Positions 3,548 through 50,382 of a stretch of 64,000 bases of DNA are shown piece after piece. The notes beneath the pieces are model-generated. The model saw nothing but the letters and a program-made list of their open reading frames with translations. It made no database searches and was not told where the DNA came from. This stretch comes from a bacterium (GTDB lineage Bacteria > UBA8248): positions 3,552,001 through 3,616,000 of the forward strand of contig OZ253442.1 in the NCBI GenBank assembly GCA_965261085.1. The letters are read 5' to 3'. The position numbers were made by a program, and so were the translations under genes. Position 1 is the stretch's first letter, and every line of letters starts with the position of its first letter.

Positions 3548-3622
<75 letters not shown>

Positions 3623-7549: not shown

Positions 7550-7939
7550 CTAATCGCTTTCCTCCTCGGTGTACGCCCGGTACGAATCGGCTTCCAGAAG
7601 TTCGTTCAACTCCGACTCGTCTTTCATCTCCACGCGAATCATCCAGCCGTCTTCATAGGGGTCGGAATTCACGAGTTCGGGCTCGTCCTCGAGCGTCGTG
7701 TTCACCTCGGTGACGACGCCCGAGACCGGCGCAAAGAGGTCCGAGACCGCCTTGACGCTCTCCACGACGCCGAAGGTGTTGTTCGCCTCCACCTCCAACC
7801 CGACTTCGGGCAGTTCGACGTACACCACGTCCCCCAGTTCAGCTTGGGCGAAGTCCGTTATCCCAATCAACGCGGTATTTTCCTCTACCCTCACCCACTC
7901 GTGTTCTCTGGAATATTTGAGGCCGCTCGGTAGTTCCAT
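7550..7939 (-). CDS. gcvH: glycine cleavage system H protein
   Basis: [19 protein letters not shown] lipoyl lysine, VNSDPY. Confidence 0.98.
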
Positions 7940-8013
7940 GCTCCTGAATGCCTCCCTTTTAGATGACGGCAGTTCCTTATGATTTGTTATGAGAAAACGG
8001 AATTCACTCCGTT

Positions 8014-9123
8014 TTAACTCTTTTTGTAAAAAGGCGTCTTCACTATCTGCGCCCGCCTGGCCTTGCCGCGAATGTCGATTTCGAGAGCAGCGCCCTCATC
8101 CGCATTCGACGCAGGAACGTAGCCTATCCCGATGGCTTTGCCAAGAGAGGGACTCATCGTCCCGCTCGTAACGCCTCCGGCCACTTCGCCGTCGATCAGG
8201 ACGGGCGCTCCATGACGAGGAATACCACGATCCACCATTTCGAATCCAACCAGTTTTCTCTTTACTCCTTCGGCCTTGAGGGCCAGCAATTTCTCCCGGC
8301 CGACGAAATCTCCCGCCTTGTACTTCACCACCCAGCCGAGGCCCGCCTCGAGTGGGTGGGTGGACTCGTCGATATCGTTTCCGTACAGGGCGAATTTCAT
8401 CTCCGTGCGTAAGGTATCCCGCGCGCCCAGCCCACAGGGCTTGAGTCCCTCGCCCCCGCCCTCGCTCATCAGCGCATCCCAGATCGCGGGCGCATCGGGT
8501 GATTTGCAATACAACTCGAAGCCGTCCTCTCCCGTGTAGCCCGTGCGGGAGACCAGCACCTCACACCCCGCCACGTCCTTATACCGCGCCCCGTAATAGG
8601 GGATGTCCGCGAGGTCCCCTCCCCCCGGAATCAATGTCCCTAAAATGGATTCGGCTTTGGGGCCCTGTAAGGCGAGGAGGCCCGTCTCATCGCTCACGTT
8701 TTGAAACGCACACGCCTCGGTGTGGTGGGAGGACATCCACTCCCAATCCTTTTCGATGTTCGCCGCGTTCACGACGGCCATGTAGCGCTCTTCTTCGAGC
8801 CGGTAGACCGTGAGGTCATCCACGATGCCGCCTTCCGCCCGGCACATGGCCGCATACAGGACGCCGCCCACGTCGAGCCTCAGCACGTTGTTCGTGACCA
8901 TCTTGTGGATGAAAACGCCCGCGTACTTCCCCCGGGCTTCGAACTCGCCCATGTGGCTCACGTCGAACAGGCCGGCCGCCTCGCGCACCGCATGGTGCTC
9001 ATCGATGACACCCGTGTACTGGACGGGCATTTCATAGCCCGCGAAGGGCACCATCTTGGCGCCTGCGGCCTTGTGGGTTTCATAAAGGGAGGTTCTACGC
9101 AGTTCCTGTTCGCCACTCGCCAT
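8014..9123 (-). CDS. gcvT: glycine cleavage system aminomethyltransferase T
   Basis: [31 protein letters not shown]. Confidence 0.97.
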
Positions 9124-35263: not shown

Positions 35264-35732
35264 CATTTCCCCGCATTTGCGACGCCCGTGAAATTTCCGG
35301 ATTCCGGTATCGTGCGCGTGGCACAGGGCGAAGGATGCCCCGCATTGGCCGGATTTGGCCTGTAAGGGGGGAGTGATGTTGAAAACCGCGTTTTCCGTAA
35401 GGGCCGTTCGAAAGCAGTCCCTAAAGCATGTTGTCCCGTCTGATCCGAAGGGGCGAACTCTCGCTCGGGTTCGGCTGAAGGAGGGACATGCTCATGGACC
35501 CGGCAATCACAAGAAAATGAAGATAATCCAATTTTCGATAAATATCGATAAATTCACGGTGTTTTTCGATAAATTCCTGAAAATGATACCGATGTAAAAA
35601 ATATGATAATGTATATTATTTCAATTAGTTGCGATATATATCTAATGTATGAAATAAATATTTTATCGAAATTTATCGAATAAAAAAGTTTTTTAGGTTC
35701 CCCGCATTTTCCCACATTTCCCCGCATTTGCG
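35264..35732. promoter_or_regulatory. AT-rich block with phased TCGATAAAT repeats, bounded by 18-bp direct repeats, upstream of aceE
   Basis: TCGATAAAT at 35535, 35545 and 35566; inverted copies at 35662 and 35671; CATTTCCCCGCATTTGCG at 35264 and 35715. Confidence 0.55.
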
Positions 35733-35892
35733 CACCGAGCACGGCAGGCTCCCAGAGAAGCCCGAACCCCACGCCCCGGGCGGGATAGACGACCCGGAAG
35801 CCTCTCGCGCGTTCCAGCGCGGCGGTTTCGTTCATGGGCCGAACGTGGTATATTCGAGGCTCATCCACACTGCCTTTGGAGACGCGCCATAT

Positions 35893-38694
35893 ATGGAGAC
35901 GAATCCTCAGGAAATCGGGGAAGTACCGGTAGGAGAGAACGGTTCATCCCTAGCTACCAACGGGATGAACCAGGACGACTCCGGCGATTCGAAGTATCTG
36001 CCCGATTCGGGGAGCACGTCCGTTTCCGAGGATGAAACAGAACTCGACAAGATAGAAACCGACGAGTGGCTCGAATCGCTCGACTACGTCTTACAAACCA
36101 GGGGTCCCGAGCGGACGAAGACCCTCCTTCGCCATTTGCAGGTTCGCGCCGTGCGCGCGGGCGTCGTTCGTCCCTTTTCGGCGAACACCCCGTATATCAA
36201 CACTATCCCCCTGGAAAAGCAGCCCCCATTCCCCGGAGATCGGGGGATCGAGCGGCGGATCAAGAGCCTCGTTCGCTGGAACGCGATGGCCATGGTGGTG
36301 CGCGCCAATGTGGAGGACGCCTCCATCGGCGGGCATATCTCCACCTTCGCCTCGGCCGCCACGCTGCTGGAAATCGGGTTCAACCACTTCTTCCGGGGGA
36401 AAAACCACCCGTGCGGCGGCGACCTCATCTACTTCCAGGGCCACAGCGCGCCCGGCATCTATGCGCGGGCATTCCTGGAGGGGCGCCTGACGGAGAAAAA
36501 CCTCGAAAACTTCAGGCGGGAACTCAAAGACGGAGGCGGGCTCTCCTCATACCCCCACCCCTGGCTGATGCCCGATTTCTGGGAATTTCCCACCGTATCG
36601 ATGGGACTCTCCTCCCTGATGGCGATATATCAGGCGCGCTACCTGCACTACCTGGAAGACCGCGGCCTCAAGCCGGCGACGGGCCAGAAGGTATGGGCTT
36701 TCCTCGGCGACGGCGAGATGGATGAACCCGAATCCCTGGGCGCCATCACCCTCGCCGCGCGGGAAAAACTCGACAATCTGGTTTTCGTCATCAACTGCAA
36801 CTTGCAGCGTCTCGACGGGCCGGTTCGGGGCAACGGCAAAATCATTCAGGAACTCGAGGCCGCATTCCGGGGCGCGAGGTGGAACGTCATCAAGGTCATC
36901 TGGGGGGATGATTGGGACCCCCTCGTGGCGATCGACGATGAGGGTGCGCTGCTCGAGCGAATGAACGAGACGGTGGATGGCCAATACCAGAAATACAGCG
37001 TCGAGAAAATCAAAGAGGGCGGCTACCTGCGGGAGCATTTCTTCGGCGGCGATGAGCGATTAAAGGCAATGGCCGACACCCTCTCCGACCATCAACTCAA
37101 CAGAATGCGGCGCGGGGGACATGACCCCGAAAAAGTGTTCGCCGCCTACCAGGCCGCCATGGAATGCGAGGGGCGTCCCACGGTCATTCTCGCCAAGACG
37201 GTGAAAGGATACGGCCTGGGCGAGGGGGGCGAGGGCAGGAACGTCACCCACCAGCAGAAAAAACTCAACCAGGATGAACTCCAGGAGTTCCGGACGCGCT
37301 TCGAGATTCCCATGTCCGACGAAGAAGTGGCCGAGGCGCCGTTTTACCGGCCGCCGGAAGATAGCCCCGAAATCAAATACCTGAAAGCAAAGCGAGAAGG
37401 GCTCGGCGGGTATGTCCCCACCCGGCGGAGCGTGTCCACGCCCCTCAAGCCGCCGCCTAACGCCTTGTTCGAGGAGTTCCTGCAAGGCACGGACGGGCGT
37501 GAAGTCTCCACGACGATGGTGTTCGTCAGAATCCTGAACAAACTGCTCCGCGACGAGGCGTTGGGCAAGCTCATCGTTCCCATCGTGCCCGATGAGGCCA
37601 GGACGTTCGGCATGGAAGCCCTTTTCCGGCAAGTGGGAATCTACTCCCACTCCGGTCAGTTGTATGAGCCCGTCGACCGCGACAGCCTTCTATATTACAA
37701 AGAAGCGCAAGACGGACAGATTCTCGAAGAAGGAATCACCGAAGCGGGTTCCATGGCCTCATTCATCGCCGCCGGAACCGCTTACTCTACACATGGGGTG
37801 AACACCATCCCGTTCTATATCTACTATTCGATGTTCGGCTTCCAGCGCATCGGCGATCTCATATGGGCCGCGGCGGACATGTGCGCGCGGGGCTTTCTGA
37901 TCGGGGGAACGGCCGGCAGAACCACCCTGAATGGGGAAGGACTTCAGCATCAGGACGGCAACAGCCATCATCTCGCATATCCCGTCCCCAATCTGCTCAC
38001 ATACGACCCGGCTTTCGCCTTCGAGATGGCGGTGATCATTCAGGACGGGATTCGCCGAATGTATCAGGAGCAGGAGAAAATATTCTACTACCTCACCTCC
38101 TACAACGAGAACTACGCCATGCCGCCTATGCCGGAGGGAGCGCAGGACGGGATATTGAAAGGCATGTATCTCTTCAGGCGATCGGAGATAGACTCGGGCC
38201 TCAAAGCGCAGTTATTGGGCAGCGGCACCATCATGAACGAGGTGCTCAAGGCGCAGGAGATGTTGGAGAAACGCTATTCGATTTCCGCGGACGTCTGGAG
38301 CGTCACGAGCTACAAGGAACTCAGGCGAGACGCTCTCGAAGTTGAGCGATGGAACATGCTGCATCCGGATTCTGCGCCGAAAACTCCTTACGTGACGCAA
38401 TCCCTCGCGCCCGCGCCCGGCGTTTGCGTGGCGGCTTCGGACTATGTGAAAGCCACGCCCGATTCGATATCGAAGTGGGTGCCAAAACCCATGATTTCGT
38501 TAGGAACCGAGGGATTCGGAAGAAGCGAGTCGAGAGCATCCCTGAGAGATTTCTTTGAAATCGACGCGCGCTATATCGTGCTCGCCACCTTGTATAGCCT
38601 GGCGCGCGATAAGAAGATATACCCCGAACTCGTGAACAAGGCGATGAAAGACCTGGATATCGACCCCGATAAAACCAACCCGATGATTTCCTAA
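35893..38694 (+). CDS. aceE: pyruvate dehydrogenase E1, homodimeric type
   Basis: EWLESL, GGHISTFAS, SSYPHP, GDGEMDE, NCNLQRLDG, DEARTFGME; GGAG SD before ATG 35893. Confidence 0.97.
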   Translation: METNPQEIGEVPVGENGSSLATNGMNQDDSGDSKYLPDSGSTSVSEDETELDKIETDEWLESLDYVLQTRGPERTKTLLRHLQVRAVRAGVVRPFSANTPYINTIPLEKQPPFPGDRGIERRIKSLVRWNAMAMVVRANVEDASIGGHISTFASAATLLEIGFNHFFRGKNHPCGGDLIYFQGHSAPGIYARAFLEGRLTEKNLENFRRELKDGGGLSSYPHPWLMPDFWEFPTVSMGLSSLMAIYQARYLHYLEDRGLKPATGQKVWAFLGDGEMDEPESLGAITLAAREKLDNLVFVINCNLQRLDGPVRGNGKIIQELEAAFRGARWNVIKVIWGDDWDPLVAIDDEGALLERMNETVDGQYQKYSVEKIKEGGYLREHFFGGDERLKAMADTLSDHQLNRMRRGGHDPEKVFAAYQAAMECEGRPTVILAKTVKGYGLGEGGEGRNVTHQQKKLNQDELQEFRTRFEIPMSDEEVAEAPFYRPPEDSPEIKYLKAKREGLGGYVPTRRSVSTPLKPPPNALFEEFLQGTDGREVSTTMVFVRILNKLLRDEALGKLIVPIVPDEARTFGMEALFRQVGIYSHSGQLYEPVDRDSLLYYKEAQDGQILEEGITEAGSMASFIAAGTAYSTHGVNTIPFYIYYSMFGFQRIGDLIWAAADMCARGFLIGGTAGRTTLNGEGLQHQDGNSHHLAYPVPNLLTYDPAFAFEMAVIIQDGIRRMYQEQEKIFYYLTSYNENYAMPPMPEGAQDGILKGMYLFRRSEIDSGLKAQLLGSGTIMNEVLKAQEMLEKRYSISADVWSVTSYKELRRDALEVERWNMLHPDSAPKTPYVTQSLAPAPGVCVAASDYVKATPDSISKWVPKPMISLGTEGFGRSESRASLRDFFEIDARYIVLATLYSLARDKKIYPELVNKAMKDLDIDPDKTNPMIS

Positions 38695-38715
38695 TACAAA
38701 TCCCGAGGGAGTTCC

Positions 38716-40110
38716 ATGACCATTGAACTCAAACTCCCCGAACTCGGGGAAAACATCACGTCCGGAAAAGTGATCGCCGTTTTGGTGAACGTGGGAGAAA
38801 CTATAGCGGTGGATCAGTCGGTTATTGAAGTGGAAACCGACAAAGCGCTCATCGAAGTCCCCTCGTCCGTCGGGGGCAAGATAACGGAAATTCATCTCAA
38901 ACCCGGCGACGACGCCGAGGTGGGGAAAACCATTCTCGTCATCGAAGAAAGCGATGCTGGCATGGAGTCCACTTTGTCTGAGGAGATTTTCGAGGAAATC
39001 TCCTCAGACACCGGTAAGCCGATAGAACAGGAAGAAACTCAACCCATGCTGATAGATGAATCCCCCTCTCCCTCAGAGACAAAAGTCGAAGATGCCGTCA
39101 CGCCGGAGTCCGCGCCTACTAGCTATTCGCTGGAATCCACCGAGGCGCCTGCGCCGGAGACTTCCGAAACTCCCGTGCCGAAGAGTAGAAAAGAACCCGC
39201 GCCCGCGGCCCCCTCGGTACGCAGAATCGCTCGTGAGGCGGGCGTCGACATAAGTGATGTGCCCGGCAGCGGAATTGGAGGCAGAATATCCGCGCAAGAC
39301 GTCAGGGAATTCGTGGTGGCTCAAGGAGGCGCCGCCGTACCGGATGCGCCTGCTCCCGCGCTGATGAGCGTACCCGTTCAACTGCCCGACCTAGCCCGCT
39401 GGGGCGGGATTGAACGCAAGCCGATGTCGGGAATCCGCCGTGCGACGTCCGTGAACCTCGCTCGCGCGTGGACGACCATCCCCCATGTGACTCAGTGCGA
39501 AAAAGCAGATATTTCCGAACTCGACGCCTTAAGAAGAAAATTCGCTCCGAAAGCGGAGGATGCGGGCGGCAAACTCACCATCACCGCCATTCTCATAAAA
39601 GTCATCGCCTCGTCCCTCAAAGTCTTCCCCCAATTCAACGCTAGCGTAGATACGGCTACGAATGAGATCGTCTACAAGAACTATATCCATGTGGGCGTTG
39701 CCGTGGATACCGAAAATGGTTTGCTCGTTCCGGTGATTCGCGATGCGGACAAGAAAAACATCATCGAGCTGTCGGTGGAATTGGGCGAAGCGGCGGAGCG
39801 CGCCCGCTCCCGAAAACTCGCTCCCGACGACATGCAGGGCGGCTGCATGACCATCACGAACCTCGGCGGCTTTGGCGGCACATATTTCACCCCGATAGTG
39901 AACTGGCCCGAAGTCGCCATTCTCGGCGTTTCCCGGGCGCGCATGGAACCGGTTTGGTCGAAAACCGAGGAGAAGTTCGAGCCGCGCCTGATGCTCCCGC
40001 TCATGGTTTCTTATGATCACCGCGTCATCGACGGGGCGAATGGCGTCAAATTCCTGAGGTGGGTGGCCGACGCGCTGGAAGAACCCATACTCATGAGCCT
40101 CGAGGGTTGA
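38716..40110 (+). CDS. aceF: dihydrolipoamide acetyltransferase E2
   Basis: One lipoyl domain (ETDKA), APSVRR E3-binding domain, YDHRVIDG. Confidence 0.95.
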   Translation: MTIELKLPELGENITSGKVIAVLVNVGETIAVDQSVIEVETDKALIEVPSSVGGKITEIHLKPGDDAEVGKTILVIEESDAGMESTLSEEIFEEISSDTGKPIEQEETQPMLIDESPSPSETKVEDAVTPESAPTSYSLESTEAPAPETSETPVPKSRKEPAPAAPSVRRIAREAGVDISDVPGSGIGGRISAQDVREFVVAQGGAAVPDAPAPALMSVPVQLPDLARWGGIERKPMSGIRRATSVNLARAWTTIPHVTQCEKADISELDALRRKFAPKAEDAGGKLTITAILIKVIASSLKVFPQFNASVDTATNEIVYKNYIHVGVAVDTENGLLVPVIRDADKKNIIELSVELGEAAERARSRKLAPDDMQGGCMTITNLGGFGGTYFTPIVNWPEVAILGVSRARMEPVWSKTEEKFEPRLMLPLMVSYDHRVIDGANGVKFLRWVADALEEPILMSLEG

Positions 40111-40858: not shown

Positions 40859-42379
40859 CTATCCTTCCGCGCTATGCTCACCCAGGTCGGCGGGGTCGGT
40901 CACCTCGATGCTCCCCTTGAGCCCGAACAGGCGCTGCATCTTCTTCCTGAAGGCCGGCGTAAAGAGTTTTTCGGCATAATACCGGCCCGCCACCCTTTTG
41001 TTCACCTGCGCCAGGGTGGGATACACGTGAACCGTATCCACCACCTCCTTGACGTGCATCTTCTTTCGGACGGCCAGCACGAACTCGTGCAATATCTCTC
41101 CCGCCGCAGGTCCGACCAAATCGGCCCCCACGAGCCTGCCCTTCTCGTCGCACACCACCTTGCAAATACCCTCCGTTTCCCCATCCAGGACGGCGCGGTC
41201 CACCCGGCTCATCGGAAAGCGAAGCACTTGCACGCGGTTCGCCCCCAACGCCGCTTCGGCGTCCGCTTCGCTCAAGCCGACGTGCGCCGCCTCGGGCGTC
41301 GTGTAGATCGTCCATGGCACGGCGTCGTAGTTCGTTTTTTTCTTGAGAAACGGGAGCGGAACCCCGAAAGGCGCGCTGAAGAGCATGTTCCTGAGCGCCA
41401 CGCCCGCTTCATACTCCGCCATGTGGGTGAAGAGATATTGGCCCCGAATATCACCGGCAGCGAAGATGCGCGGATTCGCGGTTTGAAGATATTCGTCCGT
41501 CTCCACGCCGCGAGGGGTGTACTTCACACCTGCTTTCTCCAGGTCCATCCCGGCCACGTTGGGCGATCGGCCAGTCGCGATGAGTAGTTGATCACAAACC
41601 CATTCTCTCTTCCCCGATGGCGTATCCGCTTCGAGGAAAATCTCCTCGCCGCGTTTTTCGACTCTTTGCGTGTTCACGTTGAAATGAAGTTTAAGACCCG
41701 ATTTCGTCAAGGAATCGCCCAGAATCTCAGCCATCTCTTTATCGAGCCTTGGCAAGAGTTTCGGCGCGCTTTGCAGCACTTCCACCTCGGCGCCGAGTTG
41801 TTGAAACGCTTGGGATAATTCCAGGCCGATGGGTCCGGCTCCCAGCACCACCAGGCGTCTGGGCAACTCCTCCAAATCAAAAACGGTTTCGTTCGTGAGA
41901 TAGGGCACGCTATCGAGGCCGGCGATGGGCGGCACGAAAGGAGAACTTCCCATGGACAGCAAAAACCGCTTGGCACGCAGCGTCCGCTCTCCCACCTGAA
42001 ACGTGTCGGGGCCGGTAAAAGCACCATCGCCGAATATCACCTCGATGCCCATCCCCTCGAAACGCTCGGGCGCATCGTGCTCGCCGATGTGAGATTGAGC
42101 CGCCTTCATGCGCTTCATGACGCGGGGGAAATCGACCCGAACGTCGCTCACGTCAATCCCGAACTCGGGCATCGAGCGCGCCTGCGCCGCCAGCCTCGCC
42201 GCGCGTATCAGGCCTTTCGAGGGCACGCATCCATAGTTCAGGCAATCCCCGCCGAGCTTCGTCTTCTCGACGAGCGCGGCCTTGGCGCCCAGTTGCGCCG
42301 CGCCAACGGAAGCCACCAAACCACCGACGCCTCCTCCGATGGCCACCAAATCAAACACCGATTCATTTTGCATCTTCAT
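40859..42379 (-). CDS. FAD-dependent pyridine nucleotide-disulfide oxidoreductase (MerA/Lpd-like, HxYPT subtype)
   Basis: GGGVGG, GGDCLNYGCVPSK, GAGPIGLE, ATGR.PN, AAGD, FTH, HVYPT. Confidence 0.9.
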   Translation of the reverse strand: MKMQNESVFDLVAIGGGVGGLVASVGAAQLGAKAALVEKTKLGGDCLNYGCVPSKGLIRAARLAAQARSMPEFGIDVSDVRVDFPRVMKRMKAAQSHIGEHDAPERFEGMGIEVIFGDGAFTGPDTFQVGERTLRAKRFLLSMGSSPFVPPIAGLDSVPYLTNETVFDLEELPRRLVVLGAGPIGLELSQAFQQLGAEVEVLQSAPKLLPRLDKEMAEILGDSLTKSGLKLHFNVNTQRVEKRGEEIFLEADTPSGKREWVCDQLLIATGRSPNVAGMDLEKAGVKYTPRGVETDEYLQTANPRIFAAGDIRGQYLFTHMAEYEAGVALRNMLFSAPFGVPLPFLKKKTNYDAVPWTIYTTPEAAHVGLSEADAEAALGANRVQVLRFPMSRVDRAVLDGETEGICKVVCDEKGRLVGADLVGPAAGEILHEFVLAVRKKMHVKEVVDTVHVYPTLAQVNKRVAGRYYAEKLFTPAFRKKMQRLFGLKGSIEVTDPADLGEHSAEG

Positions 42380-42434
42380 ATCCTCTCCAGATGGCGAAAA
42401 CCGCCTATCCTGCAACAAATGCGGATTGACCCGC

Positions 42435-43961
42435 TCAAGACGTTTCCTTATCCAAGGGTTTGAGCCCAAACGCGAAGAACAAAACCGCGATGAGGAAATA
42501 ACCGACAGCTATGCCGGGCGCCGCCCCCCAGCCGAAGGAACTGACGACGCCGCCGGGCGTGATTCGCCAGGCGTGGATGATGCCGAACCAACTCAAGACC
42601 GCACCGGCCATGGCCCAGCCTCCCGCCTGTTTCGGCTCGCGGTCCACCAGCTTCGCTACGATGGCCGTCATGATGATGGACGTAAAAAGAAAACCGCGCG
42701 CCAAGGTAACCATCCCCACCATGTGGAATCCCGATTTAACGAACGCGTCCTGCCCCACTTTCCATATGTTCGTGCCTGCCGCCCGGAGGGAGGATTCCAC
42801 CATCAACAATCCCCACGCGGCGATGGCAGGTATCAACCCGATGGCCACGGCCGGTCCGTGGCGCGCCGGCGACGCCTGAAACGCCTGGGTGAGCATCATC
42901 ACCCCAATCCAGAGCATGAGGGCGAAGAGTGCTTCACCCGGAATGATTTTCGAGAGCGCTGCAATCGAGCCAGTGAAACAAAGAATCGTCATAACGACCC
43001 CGTTCATCGCACTATAGGCCGAGCGTGCCCCAACCGCCTTCCACGCCGGGTGCCCAATATACAAGGTGGTGGGAAAACAACTACCCAAGCACGCCGCAAG
43101 AAGCGAGCCCGCGCCGTTCACCGCCAGGGAACTGCCCGTATCAAAATTGTCTCCGCCCGCGGCCGCGCTTTCGAGGCACATCAAACTGCCCACCAGCGTC
43201 ATCAGACCCATGGGGATGGAAACGGAGAGATAATCCCAGGCCAGCGGACCGAAAAGAGCGTCGGATAAAGGGCCCAGGGCCGAGGTTGGGAGCGCCAAGC
43301 CCACAGGCGCAGGAATCCCGCCCGGAAATCCCTTGATGACGGCGGATAGGACCACTCCCACCGCCACCGCCACGAGGCCGCCCGGCACGCCGAAGGGAAA
43401 CCGGAATCCTCCGAAATAATGGAGCAGTATGATTCCAAGCGGGATCATGGAGAGGAGTGGATTTTCCCAGATTCGGAACGTGAAATCCATGGCAATGAAC
43501 GTGAGCGCGATGCCCCCCAGAGCGGAGAGCAAAGCGGCCCTCGGCGCGAGCCGCCTGATATGCTTGCCCACCAGCGAGCCGACGGTCTCTATCACCCCGC
43601 TCACGAAACAGGCCGCCAGTCCCGCTTGCCAGGCCGCCTCGGCGCTTCCGGTCTTCAGCTTCACGGGCAGCATGACGAAAATAATGAACGCGAATAGCGT
43701 CACCGTGTTGATGCCGTACGGCATGGCGGTCACGTCGTCGCGGCCTTCGCGCGCGGCCAGGCGCCTCGCCTGCCAAGAGTAGAAGAGGTTGCCCCCCAGG
43801 AGGCTTAAGGCCGCGGCGGGCAACACGCGCCCGAAAATGAGCGAATCGGGAAAGCCCATCATCCCTTTGAGGAAACTCACGATGAGAAGCAGATTGATGA
43901 GGTTGTCCATCCACAGGCCGAAGAAGCCATCGACATCACCCTTCACGAACCACGTAGACAT
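42435..43961 (-). CDS. NCS2/AzgA-like permease
   Basis: GDVDGFFGL, TAMPYG, ESAAAGGD, YIGHP.WK; more than 12 TM segments; AGGAGG SD before ATG 43961. Confidence 0.82.
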   Translation of the reverse strand: MSTWFVKGDVDGFFGLWMDNLINLLLIVSFLKGMMGFPDSLIFGRVLPAAALSLLGGNLFYSWQARRLAAREGRDDVTAMPYGINTVTLFAFIIFVMLPVKLKTGSAEAAWQAGLAACFVSGVIETVGSLVGKHIRRLAPRAALLSALGGIALTFIAMDFTFRIWENPLLSMIPLGIILLHYFGGFRFPFGVPGGLVAVAVGVVLSAVIKGFPGGIPAPVGLALPTSALGPLSDALFGPLAWDYLSVSIPMGLMTLVGSLMCLESAAAGGDNFDTGSSLAVNGAGSLLAACLGSCFPTTLYIGHPAWKAVGARSAYSAMNGVVMTILCFTGSIAALSKIIPGEALFALMLWIGVMMLTQAFQASPARHGPAVAIGLIPAIAAWGLLMVESSLRAAGTNIWKVGQDAFVKSGFHMVGMVTLARGFLFTSIIMTAIVAKLVDREPKQAGGWAMAGAVLSWFGIIHAWRITPGGVVSSFGWGAAPGIAVGYFLIAVLFFAFGLKPLDKETS

Positions 43962-44138
43962 CGGAGTCCTCCTGCTCAAAGTGAAAAACGTCAAACCAGG
44001 CGCGCCGCAATTCTCGGGATAGTAAAACAAGCGGCAATATTCGCCAAAGCGCCCGAGGCTGTTTTTCTCATCTCCATCGTTTTGATATGCTTTATCCGTA
44101 AACAAAAATTACGTTCGCGCTCATAGGGGAGAAAAGCG

Positions 44139-44891
44139 ATGGAAGCTGTCAAAGTTTATACGCGGCACGGGTGATATACCTGCGCCCTTACGAGAGAGTT
44201 TCTCTCGTCCAGCGGTCTGGAAGTCATTAACCGGGACTGTACGAACGACGCCGAGGCTCAGGCGGAGCTCAAGGCGCTGGGAATCAAGGCCCTGCCCGTC
44301 GCCGTGCGCGGAGAGAACGTGGTGGTGGGCTATGACGTGGATGCGCTTCGCAAAGCCTTCGATATCGAACAGGAAGGCGCAGGCCCCCTCTCGTCTGAAA
44401 AAATGCTCCACTACTTCGAGATGGTCTTCGACGCCCTTCGCCGCGCGGTCCGCCAAATCCCGCAGGAAACGCTCGATTGGGTATCTCCCGGTAGACCCCG
44501 TACGCTTCGCCAACTCACATGGCACAGCTTCGAGCGTCCCGACCTGGTGATGCAGACCCACGCATCGGGGGAATACACCGAGGATATGGTGAGGGAATAT
44601 GAAACGGTGGCGAACAACTACCACACCCAAGAGGATATCTGCGGCTACGGCGATGAAATTCAGGCCAAGCTCACCGATTTTCTCACCGACGGCGGCGAGG
44701 CGCTCGCGCGGAAAGTGTCGAGCTATATGGGACCCATCACCGTGCATGAGTTGATGATCCTCTCCCTGGGGCACGCTTTCCAGCATTTGCGGCAAACCTA
44801 TCACTATTTCGGGATGCTGGAGATTGAGCCGGAAAATCCCTTACGCCCCGAGGATTACGAGGAAGTGCCCGTGCCCAAGGATCTTTTCTAG
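44139..44891 (+). CDS. selenoprotein: UxxC glutaredoxin/NrdH-like domain fused to a DinB-family domain (250 aa)
   Basis: SD AGGGGAG + ATG 44139; MEAVKVYTRHG-TGA-YTCALTREFL...LPV continues in frame into ORF 44304-44891; DinB His motifs LTWH and HAFQH; hairpin after the TGA. Confidence 0.85.
44175..44216 (+). promoter_or_regulatory. putative bacterial SECIS element
   Basis: ACGAGAGA (44190-97) / TCTCTCGT (44201-08) stem with a GTT apical loop starting 24 nt after the TGA; weaker lower stem. Confidence 0.65.
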
Positions 44892-44920: not shown

Positions 44921-46198
44921 ATGCCCTCGAAAGATACATTCCCCCTTCGCGCCAACCGCGCCCGCATGAGGCGTGAATTCAACGCCCAGGCGCGAATCGG
45001 CAAATACGGGAAAACGGGCCTCGACCGCGTAGCCTTTACGCCGGCCTACAACGATGTTCGCGACCTCGTCCAAGGCTGGATGAAGGAGGCGGGCCTTAAG
45101 ACGCGCGTCGACGCCGTGGGGAATCTGTACGGAAGAAAAGAAGGCCGCATGGGCGGGCTTCCCGCCGTGATGGTCGGCTCGCACCTCGATTCCCAAAGCC
45201 CGGGCGGGCGATTCGACGGGCCCGCAGGCGTCCTCACCGCCTTGGAGGCGGTCCGGCGCATTGACGAGGCGGGATTCACGCATGCTCACCCCATTGAGGT
45301 GGTGGCCTTCGTGGGAGAAGAATCCGCATGCGGGATGACGGTGTTCGGCAGCAGCGTCGCCACGGGCGTCGTGGGCGTGAAGGACTTGAAGAACACGGAG
45401 CATCCCCCCACCGGAAAATCGCTGTATGAGGCCATCGAGGCGGTGGGCGGAAGCCCTGCGCGCGTGCGCTCCTGCAAGATTCAGGAAGGGTCGCTCAAGG
45501 CCTTTTTGGAGCTTCACATCGAACAGGGGCCGGTTCTCGAATCAGCCGAGGCGCCCATCGGCATCGTGGACAGGGTCGTGGGATACACGAGAGGCGAGGT
45601 TCACTTCTCGGGCGTCGCGGCGCACTCGGGCGGACAGCCCATGCCTTACCGGAAGGACGCCGGCATGGCGGCGGCGGACTTCATGGTGCGGATGGAGAAC
45701 GCCGTGAAACGCGCGCCCGAATCCCAGCGTCTTACGATTACCTTCGGCGAGATGGAAGCGCTCCCCGGGTGGGTATCCATCGTGCCCGGAGGCGCGAGGC
45801 TTTCCTTCGACCTGAGGAGCAGAAGCCAGGCGGTGATGGAGCGTACCCTCGCGCGAATGGAGAAAACACTCGCCGCCATCGAGAAGGAGCGCGGCGTTCA
45901 GGGGCGCTTGTCCGGCGTGAACAAGCTGGCCGTCTGCCCCACGTCCGCCAACATCCAAAAGGCTCTCCGGCGCGCCTCTAAAGAGACGGGACACGCCTCG
46001 CTCACGCTATCGAGCGGCGGGGTGCACGACGCCTGCCGCATGGCGGCGATATGCCCGATGGGCATGGTGTTCATTCCCTCGGTGGGTGGGCTCTCGCACA
46101 CTCCGGAGGAGTTCACGCACTTTGACGACATGGTGAAGGGTGCGGAAATCCTCGCCTCAGCCACCCTGCGTCTTACCGATGAGAAGGTGAAGGCGTAA
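44921..46198 (+). CDS. M20 Zn amidohydrolase (allantoate amidohydrolase / N-carbamoyl-amino acid hydrolase family)
   Basis: GSHLDS..GG.FDG, EE, ELHIEQGP, AHSG, SGG.HDA, SH.PEE. Confidence 0.9.
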   Translation: MPSKDTFPLRANRARMRREFNAQARIGKYGKTGLDRVAFTPAYNDVRDLVQGWMKEAGLKTRVDAVGNLYGRKEGRMGGLPAVMVGSHLDSQSPGGRFDGPAGVLTALEAVRRIDEAGFTHAHPIEVVAFVGEESACGMTVFGSSVATGVVGVKDLKNTEHPPTGKSLYEAIEAVGGSPARVRSCKIQEGSLKAFLELHIEQGPVLESAEAPIGIVDRVVGYTRGEVHFSGVAAHSGGQPMPYRKDAGMAAADFMVRMENAVKRAPESQRLTITFGEMEALPGWVSIVPGGARLSFDLRSRSQAVMERTLARMEKTLAAIEKERGVQGRLSGVNKLAVCPTSANIQKALRRASKETGHASLTLSSGGVHDACRMAAICPMGMVFIPSVGGLSHTPEEFTHFDDMVKGAEILASATLRLTDEKVKA

Positions 46199-46482: not shown

Positions 46483-47745
46483 ATGGGCAGGATATTCAGG
46501 CACGTCATTTTCGGGTTCTTGCTGCTCCTCGCGGCGAGCATCGCTTTCACCCCCGCGGCGCAGGCGGCCAAAAAAGAGGTCACAATCGGATTCAGCATGG
46601 CGCTGACCGGGCCACTCGGCCCCGCCGGCAAGGCGGCGCTGCTGGCCATCCAGATCTGGCGCGACGACGTGAACGCCAGGGGCGGATTGCTCGGCCGCAA
46701 GGTCAAGTTGGTCTATTACGATGATCAGACCAAACCCGCCAACGTTCCGGGCATCTACGCCAAGCTTCTCGACGTGGACAAGGTGGACTTCGCCGTCTCG
46801 GGCTACGGGACGAACCTCATCGTCCCCGCACTGCCGATCATGATGGAGCGGGGCATGGTGTTCATGGGCCTGTTCGGCCTCGACGCGAACGCCAAGTTCA
46901 AATACGACAACTACTTCCAGATCATGCCGGCCGGCCCCGACCCGGTGGTGGACTGGTCCCGCGGCTTCTTTGAACTCGCCGTGAAGCAAAAGCCCCGGCC
47001 CAAGACGATAGCGCTGCTCTCGGCCGATTCCGAGTTCGCGCGCAACGCCGTGGCCGGCGCCCGTAGGAACGCGAAGAAATACGGCCTCAAGGTCGTCTAC
47101 GACAAGCGCTACCCCTTCCCGGGCACGACCGACTTCACGCCGATTCTGCGCGCGGTCAAGGCTACCAACCCCGACACGTTCTACGTGGGTTCCTACCCAG
47201 GCGGCTCGGTGGGCATCGTGAAGGCCGCGCATGAGATCGACCTCAAACCCAAGCTCTTCGGCGGCGGCATGGTCGGCCTGCAGTACACCGCCATTCAGAT
47301 GAACCTCGGCAAACTGCTCAACGGCATCACGAACTACTGGTTCTGGGCGCCGGAGAAGACCCTGAAATTCCCGGGCATCGAAGCCTTCCTGGCGAAATAC
47401 CAGAAAGAAGCGCCCAAACAGAAGCTCGACCCGCTGGGCTACTACCTTCCGCCGTTCGCCTACGCCTACGTGCAGGTGCTCGGACAGGCGATTGAGGCCA
47501 CCAAGAGCTTCGACCAGAAGAAGGTCGGCGCCTACATCCGCAACAACACCCATTCCACCGTGGTCGGAAAGGTGAAGTTCGGCAAGAACGGCGAATGGGC
47601 GACCTCCCGGACGTTCCAGGTGCAACTCCAGAACATCACGAGCAACAAGATGAGCGAGTTCAGCAAACCCGGCAAGATGGTGGTGCTGTATCCTGAGGAA
47701 TTCAAGTCCGGAAACCTGATCTACCCTTACGAGAAAGCCAAGTAA
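46483..47745 (+). CDS. branched-chain amino acid-type ABC transporter substrate-binding protein
   Basis: Sec-pathway signal peptide, LTGP, NARGGLLGR, YDDQ. Confidence 0.9.
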   Translation: MGRIFRHVIFGFLLLLAASIAFTPAAQAAKKEVTIGFSMALTGPLGPAGKAALLAIQIWRDDVNARGGLLGRKVKLVYYDDQTKPANVPGIYAKLLDVDKVDFAVSGYGTNLIVPALPIMMERGMVFMGLFGLDANAKFKYDNYFQIMPAGPDPVVDWSRGFFELAVKQKPRPKTIALLSADSEFARNAVAGARRNAKKYGLKVVYDKRYPFPGTTDFTPILRAVKATNPDTFYVGSYPGGSVGIVKAAHEIDLKPKLFGGGMVGLQYTAIQMNLGKLLNGITNYWFWAPEKTLKFPGIEAFLAKYQKEAPKQKLDPLGYYLPPFAYAYVQVLGQAIEATKSFDQKKVGAYIRNNTHSTVVGKVKFGKNGEWATSRTFQVQLQNITSNKMSEFSKPGKMVVLYPEEFKSGNLIYPYEKAK

Positions 47746-47760
47746 CGAACCGGAGATGAT

Positions 47761-47797
47761 GACGCGGACCGGGGGGACACACCCCCCGGTCCGCGTC
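47761..47797 (+). terminator. perfect 16-bp stem-loop after the SBP gene (mRNA stabiliser or attenuator)
   Basis: GACGCGGACCGGGGGG-ACACA-CCCCCCGGTCCGCGTC; no U-tract. Confidence 0.6.
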
Positions 47798-47820
47798 CGG
47801 CTCGCAGGAGGAGAGCATCC

Positions 47821-48693
47821 ATGCTCAGTGTCGAATTTTTTCTGAACGCGCTCATGGCGGGCATCCTGCTGGGCGGTTTCTACGCCGCGATAAGCGTGGG
47901 GCTTTCGCTCTCCTTCGGCCTGCTGGACGTCGTGAACATCGCCCATCCGGCGTTCATCCTCTGCGGCTCCTATGTGACTTTCTACGCCAACGAGCATTTC
48001 GGGGTCGACCCGATAATCGCAGGCGTCGTTTTCGCCGTTCCGTTCTACTTCGTGGGTGTCGCGGTCTACCGGATTTACTATAACAGCTTCGAGAAGACGG
48101 GGGCCGAGTCCCTGCGGGGGCTGGTATTTTTCTTCGGACTGTTTTTCCTGATCGAAGTCATCCTCATCATCACCTTTGGGGTGGACTACCGCCTCGTCCA
48201 GGCGTTCTACATCGGAAAATCCACGTCCATCGGCCCGGTGGGAATCGCCTACCGGCTGTTCGTGCCCTTCCTGGTGGGCGGGATACTCGCCACCGGCCTG
48301 TATCTGTTTCTCTCCAAAACATTTTTCGGACGCGCCGTCATGGGCGTGGCGCAGGACAGCCTCGCCGTTCAACTCATGGGGGTCGACCCCATCCGGATCA
48401 AGACGGTCGCGTTCGGCATCAGCATCGCCACCGCCGTGATCGCCGGTTCCCTGCTCATCATCATCGGCCCGGTCGAACCGACCATCGGGCGAGAGTACAT
48501 CGGCCGTGTCTTCGCGGTCACCGTCCTCGGCGGGCTGGGCAGCATGACGGGCACGCTCGTGGGCGCGCTCGTCCTGGGCGTCGCGGAGAGCTTTACCTCT
48601 TCTTTCTTCGGTCCCTCGTGGTCGCTGGCCGTCTCGTTCGGCATTCTGCTCATATGCCTGGCGGTCCGGCCGTCCGGCCTGTTCGGGAGGTAG
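47821..48693 (+). CDS. ABC transporter permease (LivH-like)
   Basis: GLSLSFG...VNIAH, LGGLGS, RPSGLFG. Confidence 0.92.
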   Translation: MLSVEFFLNALMAGILLGGFYAAISVGLSLSFGLLDVVNIAHPAFILCGSYVTFYANEHFGVDPIIAGVVFAVPFYFVGVAVYRIYYNSFEKTGAESLRGLVFFFGLFFLIEVILIITFGVDYRLVQAFYIGKSTSIGPVGIAYRLFVPFLVGGILATGLYLFLSKTFFGRAVMGVAQDSLAVQLMGVDPIRIKTVAFGISIATAVIAGSLLIIIGPVEPTIGREYIGRVFAVTVLGGLGSMTGTLVGALVLGVAESFTSSFFGPSWSLAVSFGILLICLAVRPSGLFGR

Positions 48694-48697
48694 CTCC

Positions 48698-49657
48698 TTG
48701 AATAGCGAAAGGAGGCTCTTCCTGATCGTGGCCGCGGTGCTGATCGTGGGAGCGTTCCTCATCACCACCCAGATGGAAAACCGATTCTACTACAAGGCGG
48801 CCTATGTCGTTTTGCAGTACGTCGTCCTGGCCACCGCCTGGAACATCCTGGGCGGCTACACCGGCTACGTGAACTTCGGCACGGCGGCGTTCTTCGCCAT
48901 GGGCGCTTATACCGCCGTCGCGCTCATCAAGACCTGGAAGCCGCCCCTCTACGTGCTGCTCGTCGCGGGCGGCCTCGTCTCGGGCCTGTTGGGACTCGGC
49001 ATCGGCTACCTGACCTTGAGGCTCAGGGGCGTTTTCTTCTCCATCGCCACCCTGGCGCTCGCCATCGTGCTCCAGATGCTCGTCTCGAACTGGGACTACG
49101 TGGGCGGGGGCGCGGGCACGCCCGTCCTCAAGCCGAGGAGCGTGCCGCTGTTCTCGAACTACGACGAGTTCCTGTTCTTCGTCATGGCGGCGCTCGCGGT
49201 GGTCGCCGTGTCGACCGCCTGGCTCATCGAGCATTCCTGGGTCGGGCGGGGAATGGCCGCCATCCGCGACAACGAGGAGGCGGCCGAGTGCATGGGCGTG
49301 CCCATCCTCAAGATCAAGCTGTTCGCCACCACGGTGAGCGGCGCCCTGATGGGGATCGCCGGCGCGCCGTTTTCCTATTTCGTCGTCTACATCGAACCCA
49401 CCTCGGCCTTTCACCTCGATTACGCCGTGAACAGCCTGGCCATGCCCATGATCGGCGGCACCACCACCTGGCTCGGCCCGCTGGTCGGCGCGGTTCTCGT
49501 CGGCACGGCCCAGCAGATAGCCACCGTCACCCTCTCTTCGGAGATGAACCTGCTCATCGTGGGCAGCCTGCTCGTGGGCTTCGTGGTGTTCGCTCCCGAC
49601 GGCCTCGTGGGCCTGTTCGGTAAAATCCGCGCGCGCCTCGCAGGGAGGGAGGCATAA
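48698..49657 (+). CDS. ABC transporter permease (LivM-like)
   Basis: WNILGGYTGYVNFG, LRG..F.IATL, AIRDNEEAA, PDGLVG. Confidence 0.92.
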   Translation: MNSERRLFLIVAAVLIVGAFLITTQMENRFYYKAAYVVLQYVVLATAWNILGGYTGYVNFGTAAFFAMGAYTAVALIKTWKPPLYVLLVAGGLVSGLLGLGIGYLTLRLRGVFFSIATLALAIVLQMLVSNWDYVGGGAGTPVLKPRSVPLFSNYDEFLFFVMAALAVVAVSTAWLIEHSWVGRGMAAIRDNEEAAECMGVPILKIKLFATTVSGALMGIAGAPFSYFVVYIEPTSAFHLDYAVNSLAMPMIGGTTTWLGPLVGAVLVGTAQQIATVTLSSEMNLLIVGSLLVGFVVFAPDGLVGLFGKIRARLAGREA

Positions 49658-50382
49658 TGAGCGACAATCTCCTCGACGTACACGGCGTCACCAAACGCTT
49701 CGGCGGCTTCAGCGCGCTCACCAAAGTGGATTTGCACGTGAAGGAAAACGAGCGCTTCGGCCTCATCGGCCCCAACGGATCGGGCAAGACCACCCTGATC
49801 AACTGCATCTCGGGCGCTCTCGCCAACGACGAGGGGAACATCGTCTTTTCCGGCCGGGACATCACCACCATGCCCGCCTACAAGCGAACCCGCATGGGCA
49901 TCGCCCGCAGCTTCCAGATTCCCAAGCCGTTCGTCAGCATGACGGTGCTCGAGAATCTGTGCATTCCGCTCGAATACGCCGCCCACAAGCATTCGCACGG
50001 GGCGGACCTTCAAGGCGAGGCCATGGAGATACTCGAAGTCATGAGCCTGGCGGACAAGGCCGACGCGCGGACCGGGGGGCTCACGCAGATCGAACTGCGC
50101 AAGCTCGAACTCGCCCGCGCCATGGCGGCCAAGCCGCGATTGCTCATATCGGACGAGGCCATGGCCGGCCTCTCCAACACCGAGGTGGACGACATTCTCG
50201 AAATCCTCGTGCGCCTGAACGAAGAGGGCCTCACCGTCATCATGATCGAGCACATCATGCGGGCGGTCATGAGTTTTTCGGAGCGCATCGTCGTCTTGGA
50301 CGCGGGTGAGAAAATCGCCGAGGGCGCGCCCGATGAGATCGTCAACAACAAAGACGTGGAAAGGGCCTACCTTGGCGCATAG
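49657..50382 (+). CDS. ABC transporter ATP-binding protein (LivG-like)
   Basis: GPNGSGKTT, RSFQ, DEAMAG, EH. Confidence 0.93.
   Translation: MSDNLLDVHGVTKRFGGFSALTKVDLHVKENERFGLIGPNGSGKTTLINCISGALANDEGNIVFSGRDITTMPAYKRTRMGIARSFQIPKPFVSMTVLENLCIPLEYAAHKHSHGADLQGEAMEILEVMSLADKADARTGGLTQIELRKLELARAMAAKPRLLISDEAMAGLSNTEVDDILEILVRLNEEGLTVIMIEHIMRAVMSFSERIVVLDAGEKIAEGAPDEIVNNKDVERAYLGA

Follow-up and report, generated by a model that had tools for sequence, protein, structure and literature searches.

Does a TGA at the 12th codon of an otherwise uninterrupted bacterial reading frame end translation there, or does it insert selenocysteine (Sec; U)? We address this question for a plus-strand gene at positions 44139 to 44891 of a 64,000-nucleotide (nt) stretch of DNA from a bacterium of the GTDB lineage UBA8248 (contig OZ253442.1, positions 3,552,001 to 3,616,000; hereafter the window, whose first letter is position 1). 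Its frame opens as a glutaredoxin (Grx), meets the TGA at the place of the first active-site residue, and runs on into a domain of the DinB superfamily. An earlier note on this DNA, made from the letters alone, had proposed a hidden selenoprotein, and that reading is supported by the conservation of the TGA, the Sec machinery of the genome, Cys homologs, and covariation in a downstream hairpin. The region 44139 to 44891 is a genuine selenoprotein gene that gene callers usually truncate. What a Sec-bearing Grx joined to a DinB domain might do is the second question that the locus raises, and we take it up after the evidence for the gene itself.

The Grx-DinB reading frame and its gene calls

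The complete coding sequence, delimited by translation with TGA read as U and by comparison with full-length relatives, extends from the ATG at 44139 to a TAG at 44889 to 44891 (plus strand) and specifies 250 amino acids (aa). It contains a single in-frame TGA, at codon 12 (44172 to 44174), after which the frame stays open, and its product begins MEAVKVYTRHG-U-YTC. Conservation and alignment with Cys homologs identify U12 as the first residue of a U-Y-T-C redox motif. The good Shine-Dalgarno sequence and ATG that had been placed at 44139 are present: GGGGAG (44126 to 44131, plus strand; read from the sequence) precedes the ATG by 7 nt, and a GGAG-type motif occupies the same position in 23 related loci.

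The list of open reading frames (ORFs) made under translation table 11 holds only 44304 to 44891 (195 aa, GTG start), the truncation that the earlier note had described. Public annotation follows the same pattern, with 34 of 36 close database matches being proteins of 154 to 233 aa without the N terminus. Two 250-aa database entries have W at position 12, and near-identical genomic copies carry TGA there; these two metagenome gene calls render the TGA as W, as if under a code in which TGA means Trp. Most deposited gene calls of the Grx-DinB family begin inside the redoxin domain, and several of the deposited starts fall directly after the active site, at M-[KT]-KEFLS.

Conservation of the TGA codon

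All 26 full-length matches recovered from 41 related genomes, down to 64% identity and including a 49% identical paralog, contain exactly one TGA. When the window was compared with 23 loci (one further locus, cut at its 5' end, was excluded), the TGA stood at codon 12 in 24 of 24 sequences. The 11 codons upstream of it vary synonymously among these sequences (e.g., GGG, GGC, or GGT at Gly11), which indicates that they are translated. A search of 51 genomes of the phylum gave 39 full-length rows, every one with one TGA, together with three partial rows without the N terminus; no Cys form was found among these 51 genomes. A TGC or TGT in close relatives would have pointed to a private nonsense mutation, and the close relatives instead keep the TGA. 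One genome encodes a second fusion paralog (G023:C20:672-1436, loci L063 and L096; 48 to 49% identical) with its own TGA (U-F-S-C) and the same downstream hairpin (see below), and with none of the window's neighbors beside it.

The codon is retained well beyond these relatives. A metagenome scan with a seven-sequence alignment recovered 554 relatives, of which 80 loci from a soil and sediment clade were kept; they have 66 to 75% G+C where measured and are about 25 to 34% identical to the window protein. The TGA lies at the same codon in 78 of them, within …YYRPG-U-SSC…; the other two were left undetermined by the search pattern. Outside the phylum, a sample of 401 genomes yielded six full-length copies in five genomes of three families, and each has one TGA at the same codon. 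The same hidden Sec codon is present in relatives from sponge-associated, soil, and sediment bacteria. The features of the locus are more than a chance arrangement, since many independent genomes conserve the TGA together with the 11 codons that lead up to it and the hairpin that follows.

A covarying hairpin downstream of the TGA

A candidate bacterial selenocysteine insertion sequence (SECIS) element, identified by folding, conservation, and covariation, occupies 44190 to 44208 (plus strand) as a hairpin with an 8-bp stem and a GUU loop (ACGAGAGA-GTT-TCTCTCGT). It begins 15 nt after the TGA and places its loop G 24 nt after the last TGA base, so that the 8-bp hairpin with a G-first loop noticed earlier was found as described. 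The bSECISearch model expects roughly 16 to 37 nt from the UGA to the loop and a G in the apical loop, and the loop-G spacing here lies within that range.

In 30 distinct 48-nt segments from the phylum, 94.6% of the helix cells are paired, versus 33 to 73% when the 3' partner is slid, and the 8-bp helix accommodates two compensatory pairs and six G-U wobbles. A low-GC genus illustrates this: its 5' arm has changed along with the protein (T-R to M-K), and its 3' arm has been restored by synonymous changes (CTC to CTT and TCG to TCA). Entropy at third codon positions, computed on 23 sequences with two loci left out, is 0.086 over hairpin codons 18 to 23 versus a gene mean of 0.67; values this low are confined to 2 of the 37 six-codon windows. 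A corresponding hairpin, equally spaced from the TGA and likewise with a G-U-U loop core, occurs in the soil clade. Across both clades (47 sequences), pair 23-33 is A-U in 17 sequences versus G-C in 17, pair 22-34 switches from A-U to C-G four times, 82.6% of the cells pair versus 37 to 55% when slid, and none of 500 shuffles reached the observed covariation score. As a control, four Cys-form genes that encode a similar peptide retain 2 to 4 of the 7 core pairs, compared with 5 to 7 in the 47 Sec forms, 26 of which have all seven.

Two observations weigh against this element. Energetically, the 69-nt stretch does not stand out (z = −0.69; 44 of 200 shuffles were as stable or more so), so that conservation and covariation, and not stability, carry the argument for a SECIS. 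Moreover, the copies of one family outside the phylum (f111; loci L182 and L186 in genomes G157 and G315) keep, where the hairpin normally lies, only 4 to 5 of the 7 core pairs. Their TGA is at the conserved codon, and their SECIS may be arranged differently; for one of them, another stem is predicted closer to the UGA. At the Rfam gathering threshold, no SECIS family was matched in the window, although whether Rfam holds a bacterial SECIS model was not checked; the only match at that threshold is an ordinary tRNA gene (3551 to 3622, minus strand).

Selenocysteine machinery and genetic code of the host

The host genome, a single contig of 4.27 Mb with 58.7% G+C, encodes the components needed to decode such a codon. 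Genome searches recovered SelA (514 bits), a SelB wing domain in a 652-aa frame adjoining selA, SelD (336 bits; G000:C1:3459-4421, locus L004, outside the window), and a tRNA-Sec with the anticodon tca. The Sec machinery whose presence the earlier note had asked to see confirmed is thus all encoded. The selD frame has one in-frame TGA, and SelD of this host is probably itself a selenoprotein. General reassignment of TGA was considered and ruled out, since TGA is the ordinary terminator of 3 of the 11 ORFs around the gene (those of an E2 component, a membrane protein, and orf50306). The available text of the BSepDB paper places metagenome-assembled genomes of GTDB UBA8248 among the ten most selenoprotein-rich bacteria.

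Elsewhere in the same genome, a separate Grx-like frame of ~80 aa (G000:C1:582629-582877, minus strand, outside the window) contains two TGAs, and most of the searched genomes of the phylum have similar short frames interrupted by one or two stops, including at least one TGA. They may represent the small "Uxx-star" type of redoxin selenoprotein that is modeled in NCBIfam. A window-wide scan for read-through TGAs in CxxU or UxxC motifs returned 19 candidates, among which the only other long one lies on the minus strand at 8096 to 8098. This candidate was rejected: its motif, C-V-E-C-G-TGA-G-R-C, belongs to a frame (7553 to 8509, minus strand) whose downstream part is an ordinary glycine-cleavage H protein (GcvH) with its own start, preceded by arginine-rich noise.

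Cys homologs and extent of the family

An exhaustive HMMER search recovered 458 representatives at E ≤ 0.001, of which 136 are 150 to 330 aa long. Within the latter set, 47 have a CxxC (mostly C-S/T-S-C) aligned to U-Y-T-C, two have another residue at the Sec position (W in one case), and the remaining 87 begin beyond the active site, within the redoxin domain. The soil and sediment clade described above belongs to this truncated-start class and shows what the DNA of one such clade encodes. The TGA at 44172 to 44174 accordingly coincides with the first Cys of CxxC, as had been predicted; homologs with Cys aligned to it do exist, and they are confined to more distant lineages. The Cys form is itself abundant: one Cys member was matched by 1,600 clusters, and those with names are mostly from Burkholderiales and have generic names only.

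In a midpoint-rooted FastTree phylogeny of 124 sequences (DinB region), which we read for topology only, the window protein falls in a half that holds only verified-Sec or truncated-start forms, and the other half mixes Cys and truncated forms. Verification at the DNA level covers two clades and five scattered genomes; the remaining truncated-start forms are presumed to be Sec forms as well.

Domain architecture and comparison with known proteins

The first ~75 residues (44139 to 44363, plus strand) form a Grx/NrdH-like thioredoxin-fold domain, as indicated by Pfam (PF00462, residues 4 to 56; 32.7 bits, cut-off 22.9), the secondary structure of an AlphaFold model, Foldseek, and the invariance of P53, the candidate cis-Pro, in a 51-sequence family alignment. 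Residues ~86 to 226 (44394 to 44816, plus strand) form a DinB_2/YfiT-like helical bundle, as indicated by Pfam (PF12867, residues 93 to 219; 27.6 bits, cut-off 24.8), Foldseek, and conservation. The His triad of this bundle consists of H129 (44523 to 44525), H212 (44772 to 44774), and H216 (44784 to 44786), which, together with R218 and Q219, are conserved in at least 90% of the same 51 sequences. HHH also occupies the triad columns in most of the 136 representatives, and no Cys is found among the conserved positions of the DinB domain. These results bear out the in-frame fusion of a Grx/NrdH fold to a DinB domain with a His triad that the earlier note had described. AlphaFold2, run with the 51-sequence alignment, returned a model (pLDDT 95.5; pTM 0.90) in which U12-x-x-C15 follows strand 4-8, and the fusion is predicted to be one compact two-domain protein.

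The fold also bears on the alternative that the TGA is a true stop, with a DinB-only product made from a downstream start such as the GTG at 44304 and the 11-codon frame being an accident, a leader peptide, or a decayed start. The public calls mostly agree with it, as seen in the 34 of 36 close matches that lack the N terminus. However, a downstream start would split the Grx fold midway, whereas the full-length sequence folds compactly. Likewise, the 11 upstream codons are conserved as protein, with synonymous changes; lineages with no more than ~24 to 30% identity retain the TGA, the Cys after it, and the hairpin; and the Cys homologs are full length. We consider a true stop extremely improbable, and by comparative standards the selenoprotein status of the gene appears as secure as computation allows.

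Foldseek matched the N-terminal domain to cGrx1 of Clostridium (Alkaliphilus) oremlandii, BC3987, and NrdH, with template modeling (TM) scores of 0.83 to 0.88 normalized to the target. The comparison with cGrx1 (Protein Data Bank [PDB] codes 7c10 and 7c12) reveals the same thioredoxin/glutaredoxin fold, with 38 to 40% identity over 70 to 73 columns and a root mean square deviation (RMSD) of 1.3 to 1.5 Å. However, cGrx1 is a stand-alone protein of ~75 residues, whereas the window protein adds a 170-residue DinB domain; its motif is U-Y-T-C, with U-S-S-C or U-F-[ST]-C in other clades. With reference to the C. oremlandii work, a 2026 review, in its available text, lists Sec-containing Grx proteins of bacteria that have UxxC. 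At the level of NCBIfam, the redoxin equivalog models all scored below their cut-offs (YruB, 44.5 against 88.55; NrdH, 38.9 against 85.75; Uxx_star, 37 against 66; mycoredoxin, 17 against 89.5), and one Cys form and one soil Sec form were likewise below the cut-offs of these four models.

For the C-terminal domain, Foldseek recovered DR0053, BCE_2162, YfiT, MDMPI, and the Mycobacterium tuberculosis (Mtb) mycothiol S-transferase. These S-transferases and their relatives (Bacillus subtilis YfiT, PDB code 1rxq; Deinococcus radiodurans DR0053, 6iz2; Mtb Mst, 8f5v; mycothiol-dependent maleylpyruvate isomerase, 2nsf) share the bundle (target-normalized TM scores of 0.63 to 0.83), the constellation of three His residues, and the DinB_2 Pfam match, with only 13 to 18% identity. 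They differ from the window protein in having no fused redoxin and, according to the available text of PMC4360819, in using a free low-molecular-weight (LMW) thiol. None has been reported as a selenoprotein in the literature that we searched. The nearest proteins in architecture are the Cys-form fusions (e.g., from Variovorax, Caballeronia, Burkholderia, Ramlibacter, Roseomonas, and Rhizobium), which have the same PF00462 plus PF12867 arrangement, length, and His triad and are ~22 to 30% identical to the window protein. They are distinguished by CxxC in place of UxxC, by the lack of the conserved hairpin, and by different gene contexts. They are annotated as "glutaredoxin domain-containing protein," "DinB family protein," or "NrdH-redoxin," and they score below the cut-off of every NCBIfam model.

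A thioredoxin-fold domain followed by an all-helical one is also the layout of canonical glutathione S-transferases (GSTs) and of Escherichia coli-type Grx2. Membership in that class was rejected: the helical part of the window protein is a metal-triad DinB bundle, unlike the C-terminal domain of GSTs, and GSTs and Francisella tularensis Grx2 superimpose poorly on the whole protein in Foldseek (RMSD of 10 to 16 Å; TM scores of 0.26 to 0.39). The resemblance is one of analogy, not of membership.

Gene neighborhoods and transcript evidence

The gene immediately downstream of the fusion, its probable operon partner (44921 to 46198, plus strand), encodes a hydantoinase/carbamoylase-family amidase of the M20 fold, assigned with Pfam (M20) and NCBIfam, and has its own AAGGAGG. 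It passes TIGR01879 (351 bits; cut-off 204) and scores 386 bits against the allantoate amidohydrolase subfamily, under the cut-off of 399. Divergently oriented on the upstream side is a gene for a polytopic, permease-like membrane protein (42435 to 44105, minus strand, as the longest ORF; the real start is probably a Met at ~43961). No Pfam or NCBIfam family matches it; in ESM-Atlas, the nearest cluster bears the automatic name "AGZA family xanthine/uracil permease" (score 0.99), which serves as a lead only. Hence, of the divergent NCS2 permease of the earlier note, the divergent permease-like gene stands, and the NCS2 label has a language-model look-alike as its sole backing.

Beyond the membrane protein, on the same strand, lies a gene for a class I flavin adenine dinucleotide (FAD)-dependent pyridine nucleotide-disulfide oxidoreductase with a CLNYGC redox disulfide (40859 to 42469, minus strand; Pfam Pyr_redox_2 and Pyr_redox_dim). 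Its best match is the uncharacterized PRK06370 subfamily (PRK06370.1-3, 501 bits; cut-off 620), and it scores 351 bits against lipoamide dehydrogenase, below the cut-off of 408.8. This oxidoreductase is a candidate reductase for the Sec-Cys pair. Convergent with it are genes for a 2-oxoacid dehydrogenase E1-like protein and an E2 component (35728 to 40110, plus strand); in two other genera (g22 and g2), genes for a 2-oxoacid:ferredoxin oxidoreductase occupy the upstream neighborhood instead. The M20 gene is followed by Pfam-identified genes of a Liv-type ATP-binding cassette (ABC) transporter, namely a binding protein, two permeases, and an ATPase (46483 to 50382, plus strand).

The neighborhood is syntenic throughout the window's own genus. 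Beyond it, the comparison covered 15 loci in six further genera, with contig ends truncating some of the loci. The M20 gene lies directly downstream of the fusion in 8 of these 15 loci, the membrane protein adjoins the fusion in 10, and the oxidoreductase stands beside the membrane protein in 3, as it does throughout the window's genus. The ABC transporter is found near the fusion in most same-genus loci and in none of the 15.

Assembled contigs from four metatranscriptome runs of two studies provided the transcript evidence. One RNA-library contig covers the start codon together with the TGA, and no difference is listed at the latter; the junction between the fusion and the M20 gene is bridged by a contig in all four runs. 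The contig of run X16 starts at 44130, 9 nt before the ATG, although contig ends do not define a transcript start; 43900 to 44129 has no RNA-library contig cover in the four runs, a gap from which we conclude nothing. These data weakly support expression and a shared transcript of the fusion and the M20 gene. The co-transcription with a carbamoyl-amidohydrolase gene that had been suggested is plausible, though short of proven: the gap between the genes is 29 nt, the M20 gene has its own Shine-Dalgarno sequence, the two are adjacent in five genera, and contigs bridge the junction.

Assembled contigs of RNA libraries may also derive from DNA, and they are no proof of one continuous transcript. 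Several other results count against tying the protein to one conserved module. At the 80 loci of the soil Sec clade, neither the M20 gene nor the permease gene occurs, and the oxidoreductase has only 2 weak matches; the neighbors there are varied (e.g., enoyl-CoA hydratase, short-chain dehydrogenase/reductase [SDR], thiamine pyrophosphate [TPP]-enzyme, and aminotransferase genes). The copies outside the phylum also lack the M20, permease, and oxidoreductase context. The Cys forms, finally, occur in varied gene contexts; those borne on plasmids are in varied catabolic settings, including a cluster of amidase, AtzG-like, and isochorismatase genes in Roseomonas. Since the soil clade, the outside copies, and the Cys forms differ in context, no single pathway can be read from the neighborhood. 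The undescribed pathway for S- or Se-containing heterocycles that the earlier note had floated finds no support, the distant Sec clades being without the M20 and permease context.

Predicted chemistry and biochemical context

The locus as a whole is best explained, with high probability in our judgment, by a 250-residue Grx-DinB selenoprotein in which a Sec-Cys pair and a three-His site take part in metal-assisted thiol or selenol chemistry. In this scheme, the UGA at codon 12 would be decoded as Sec by SelB and tRNA-Sec, guided by the SECIS hairpin 15 nt downstream, and Sec12 and Cys15 would constitute the UxxC redox pair of the Grx/NrdH-like fold. The DinB/YfiT-type bundle is predicted to carry a three-His metal site. 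A redoxin whose CxxC has Sec as the attacking residue is expected to catalyze redox or thiol-transfer reactions, and the protein would then be a metal-assisted thiol or selenol oxidoreductase or transferase. In DinB S-transferases of solved structure, a low-molecular-weight thiol is activated by the metal site; here, the tethered selenolate would either supply that nucleophile or resolve the adduct; the product would be a Sec12-Cys15 selenenylsulfide, to be recycled by a disulfide reductase. In the window's clade, the neighboring FAD oxidoreductase is the candidate recycler, and the protein may act in a module with the M20 carbamoylase-type amidase and the permease-like membrane protein.

This scheme builds on what is observed, namely a reading frame with a conserved TGA, a hairpin that is both conserved and covarying, two recognizable folds, homologs with Cys, and the Sec machinery of the genome. 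Against it counts the fact that we purely infer the action of Sec at the metal site. A tethered Sec-Cys pair that supplies or recycles thiol chemistry is favored by the position of Sec, the three-His site, the lack of a conserved Cys in the DinB domain, and the use of LMW thiols by characterized DinB enzymes. On this last point, the available text of PMC4360819 describes DinB-fold S-transferases that use bacillithiol or mycothiol, and this text together with the title of PDB entry 8f5v, a mycothiol S-transferase with mycothiol and Zn, indicates a metal site that works with an LMW thiol.

A free thiol could also be at work here. In a two-step cascade, the DinB domain would conjugate an electrophile with a free LMW thiol (as YfiT/BstA and Mst do), the redoxin would do no more than remove or recycle the mixed disulfide or S-conjugate that results (in the manner of mycoredoxin and bacilliredoxin), the M20 protein would be the conjugate amidase, and the membrane protein would be an exporter; the purpose would be detoxification, not catabolism. 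The thiol-detoxification components named in the available text of PMC4360819 are an NADPH disulfide reductase, a Grx-like enzyme, a DinB-family S-transferase, an S-conjugate amidase, and nearby efflux transporters, to which the disulfide oxidoreductase, Grx-DinB fusion, amidase, and membrane protein of the present module may be likened. The FAD oxidoreductase also matches the mycothione reductase and glutathione reductase models, below their cut-offs. Yet BshC and a proteobacterial-type GshA were not found in the genome with the queries used, and a glutathione synthetase ATP-grasp match is nonspecific, being obtained also in control genomes that make no glutathione. Furthermore, known conjugate amidases belong to a fold family different from M20, the M20 protein passes the carbamoylase/hydantoinase cut-off, which points to ureido substrates, and the module is not common to the other Sec clades. 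We regard such a cascade as unlikely.

The ureido specificity suggested for the M20 protein leads to a different pathway, which amounts to the earlier idea freed of its restriction to S or Se compounds. The permease would import a purine- or hydantoin-type compound, the M20 enzyme would hydrolyze a carbamoyl or ureido intermediate, and the selenoprotein would perform a reductive or thiol-dependent ring step in the catabolism of ureides or N-heterocycles. In keeping with this are the passing TIGR01879 score of the M20 protein and its 386 bits against the allantoate amidohydrolase cut-off of 399, the AGZA xanthine/uracil permease name of the cluster nearest to the membrane protein, and the amide/ureide context of the Roseomonas Cys form, which lies between an isochorismatase-family hydrolase and an AtzG-like/amidase pair, with an ABC transporter and another amidase alongside. 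However, the permease assignment is without profile support, and we saw nothing in the conserved module that would open a ring, such as a hydantoinase or an allantoinase. Acyl-CoA, SDR, and TPP-enzyme genes, moreover, surround the fusion in the soil clade and the Cys form in Variovorax, and to our knowledge the known ureide pathways need no redox step. Ureide catabolism is in our estimate distinctly doubtful.

The favored metal-assisted chemistry of a tethered Sec-Cys pair can be carried further, to a speculative proposal that we hold with low confidence. The Grx-DinB fusion would be a predominantly, perhaps ancestrally, annotation-hidden selenoprotein family in which the tethered selenolate replaces the free LMW thiol cofactor of the DinB S-transferases. 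The result would be a self-contained enzyme with a His3-bound metal and a selenol, cleaving or reducing a carbon-heteroatom bond and recycled from the selenenylsulfide by a dedicated flavoprotein. If this is true, it would introduce Sec-dependent chemistry to the DinB superfamily for the first time and give organisms without a classical thiol cofactor a new catalytic solution.

Implications for the family

Selenoproteins with a UxxC motif in a thioredoxin fold are well known, and reports of further bacterial families continue to appear regularly. A DinB-linked selenoprotein was not found described in our full-text literature search or in NCBIfam, and no model of NCBIfam release 20 is passed by any form of the Grx-DinB protein. 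The 2026 review has a table of prokaryotic selenoprotein families that includes Grx (PF00462, UxxC); DinB, YfiT, PF12867, PF05163, mycothiol, bacillithiol, "metal-dependent hydrolase," and "damage-inducible" are absent from its text. The deep-Sep paper has no mention of glutaredoxin, Grx, or DinB. The gene may already be cataloged under a generic Grx label, for instance, in BSepDB or in the supplements of surveys.

The Grx-DinB fusion connects selenocysteine with a superfamily, DinB, about whose enzymes little is understood. The family is widespread and systematically miscalled, as seen both in the close matches (34 of 36) and in the representative clusters (87 of 136), and since the calls start inside the redoxin domain, the proteomes of sponge-associated, soil, and sediment bacteria hold a truncated "DinB family protein" in its place. 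With its paired Sec and Cys forms, its confidently predicted fold, and its conserved amidase partner, the fusion offers a tractable route to the function of a large, uncharacterized family.

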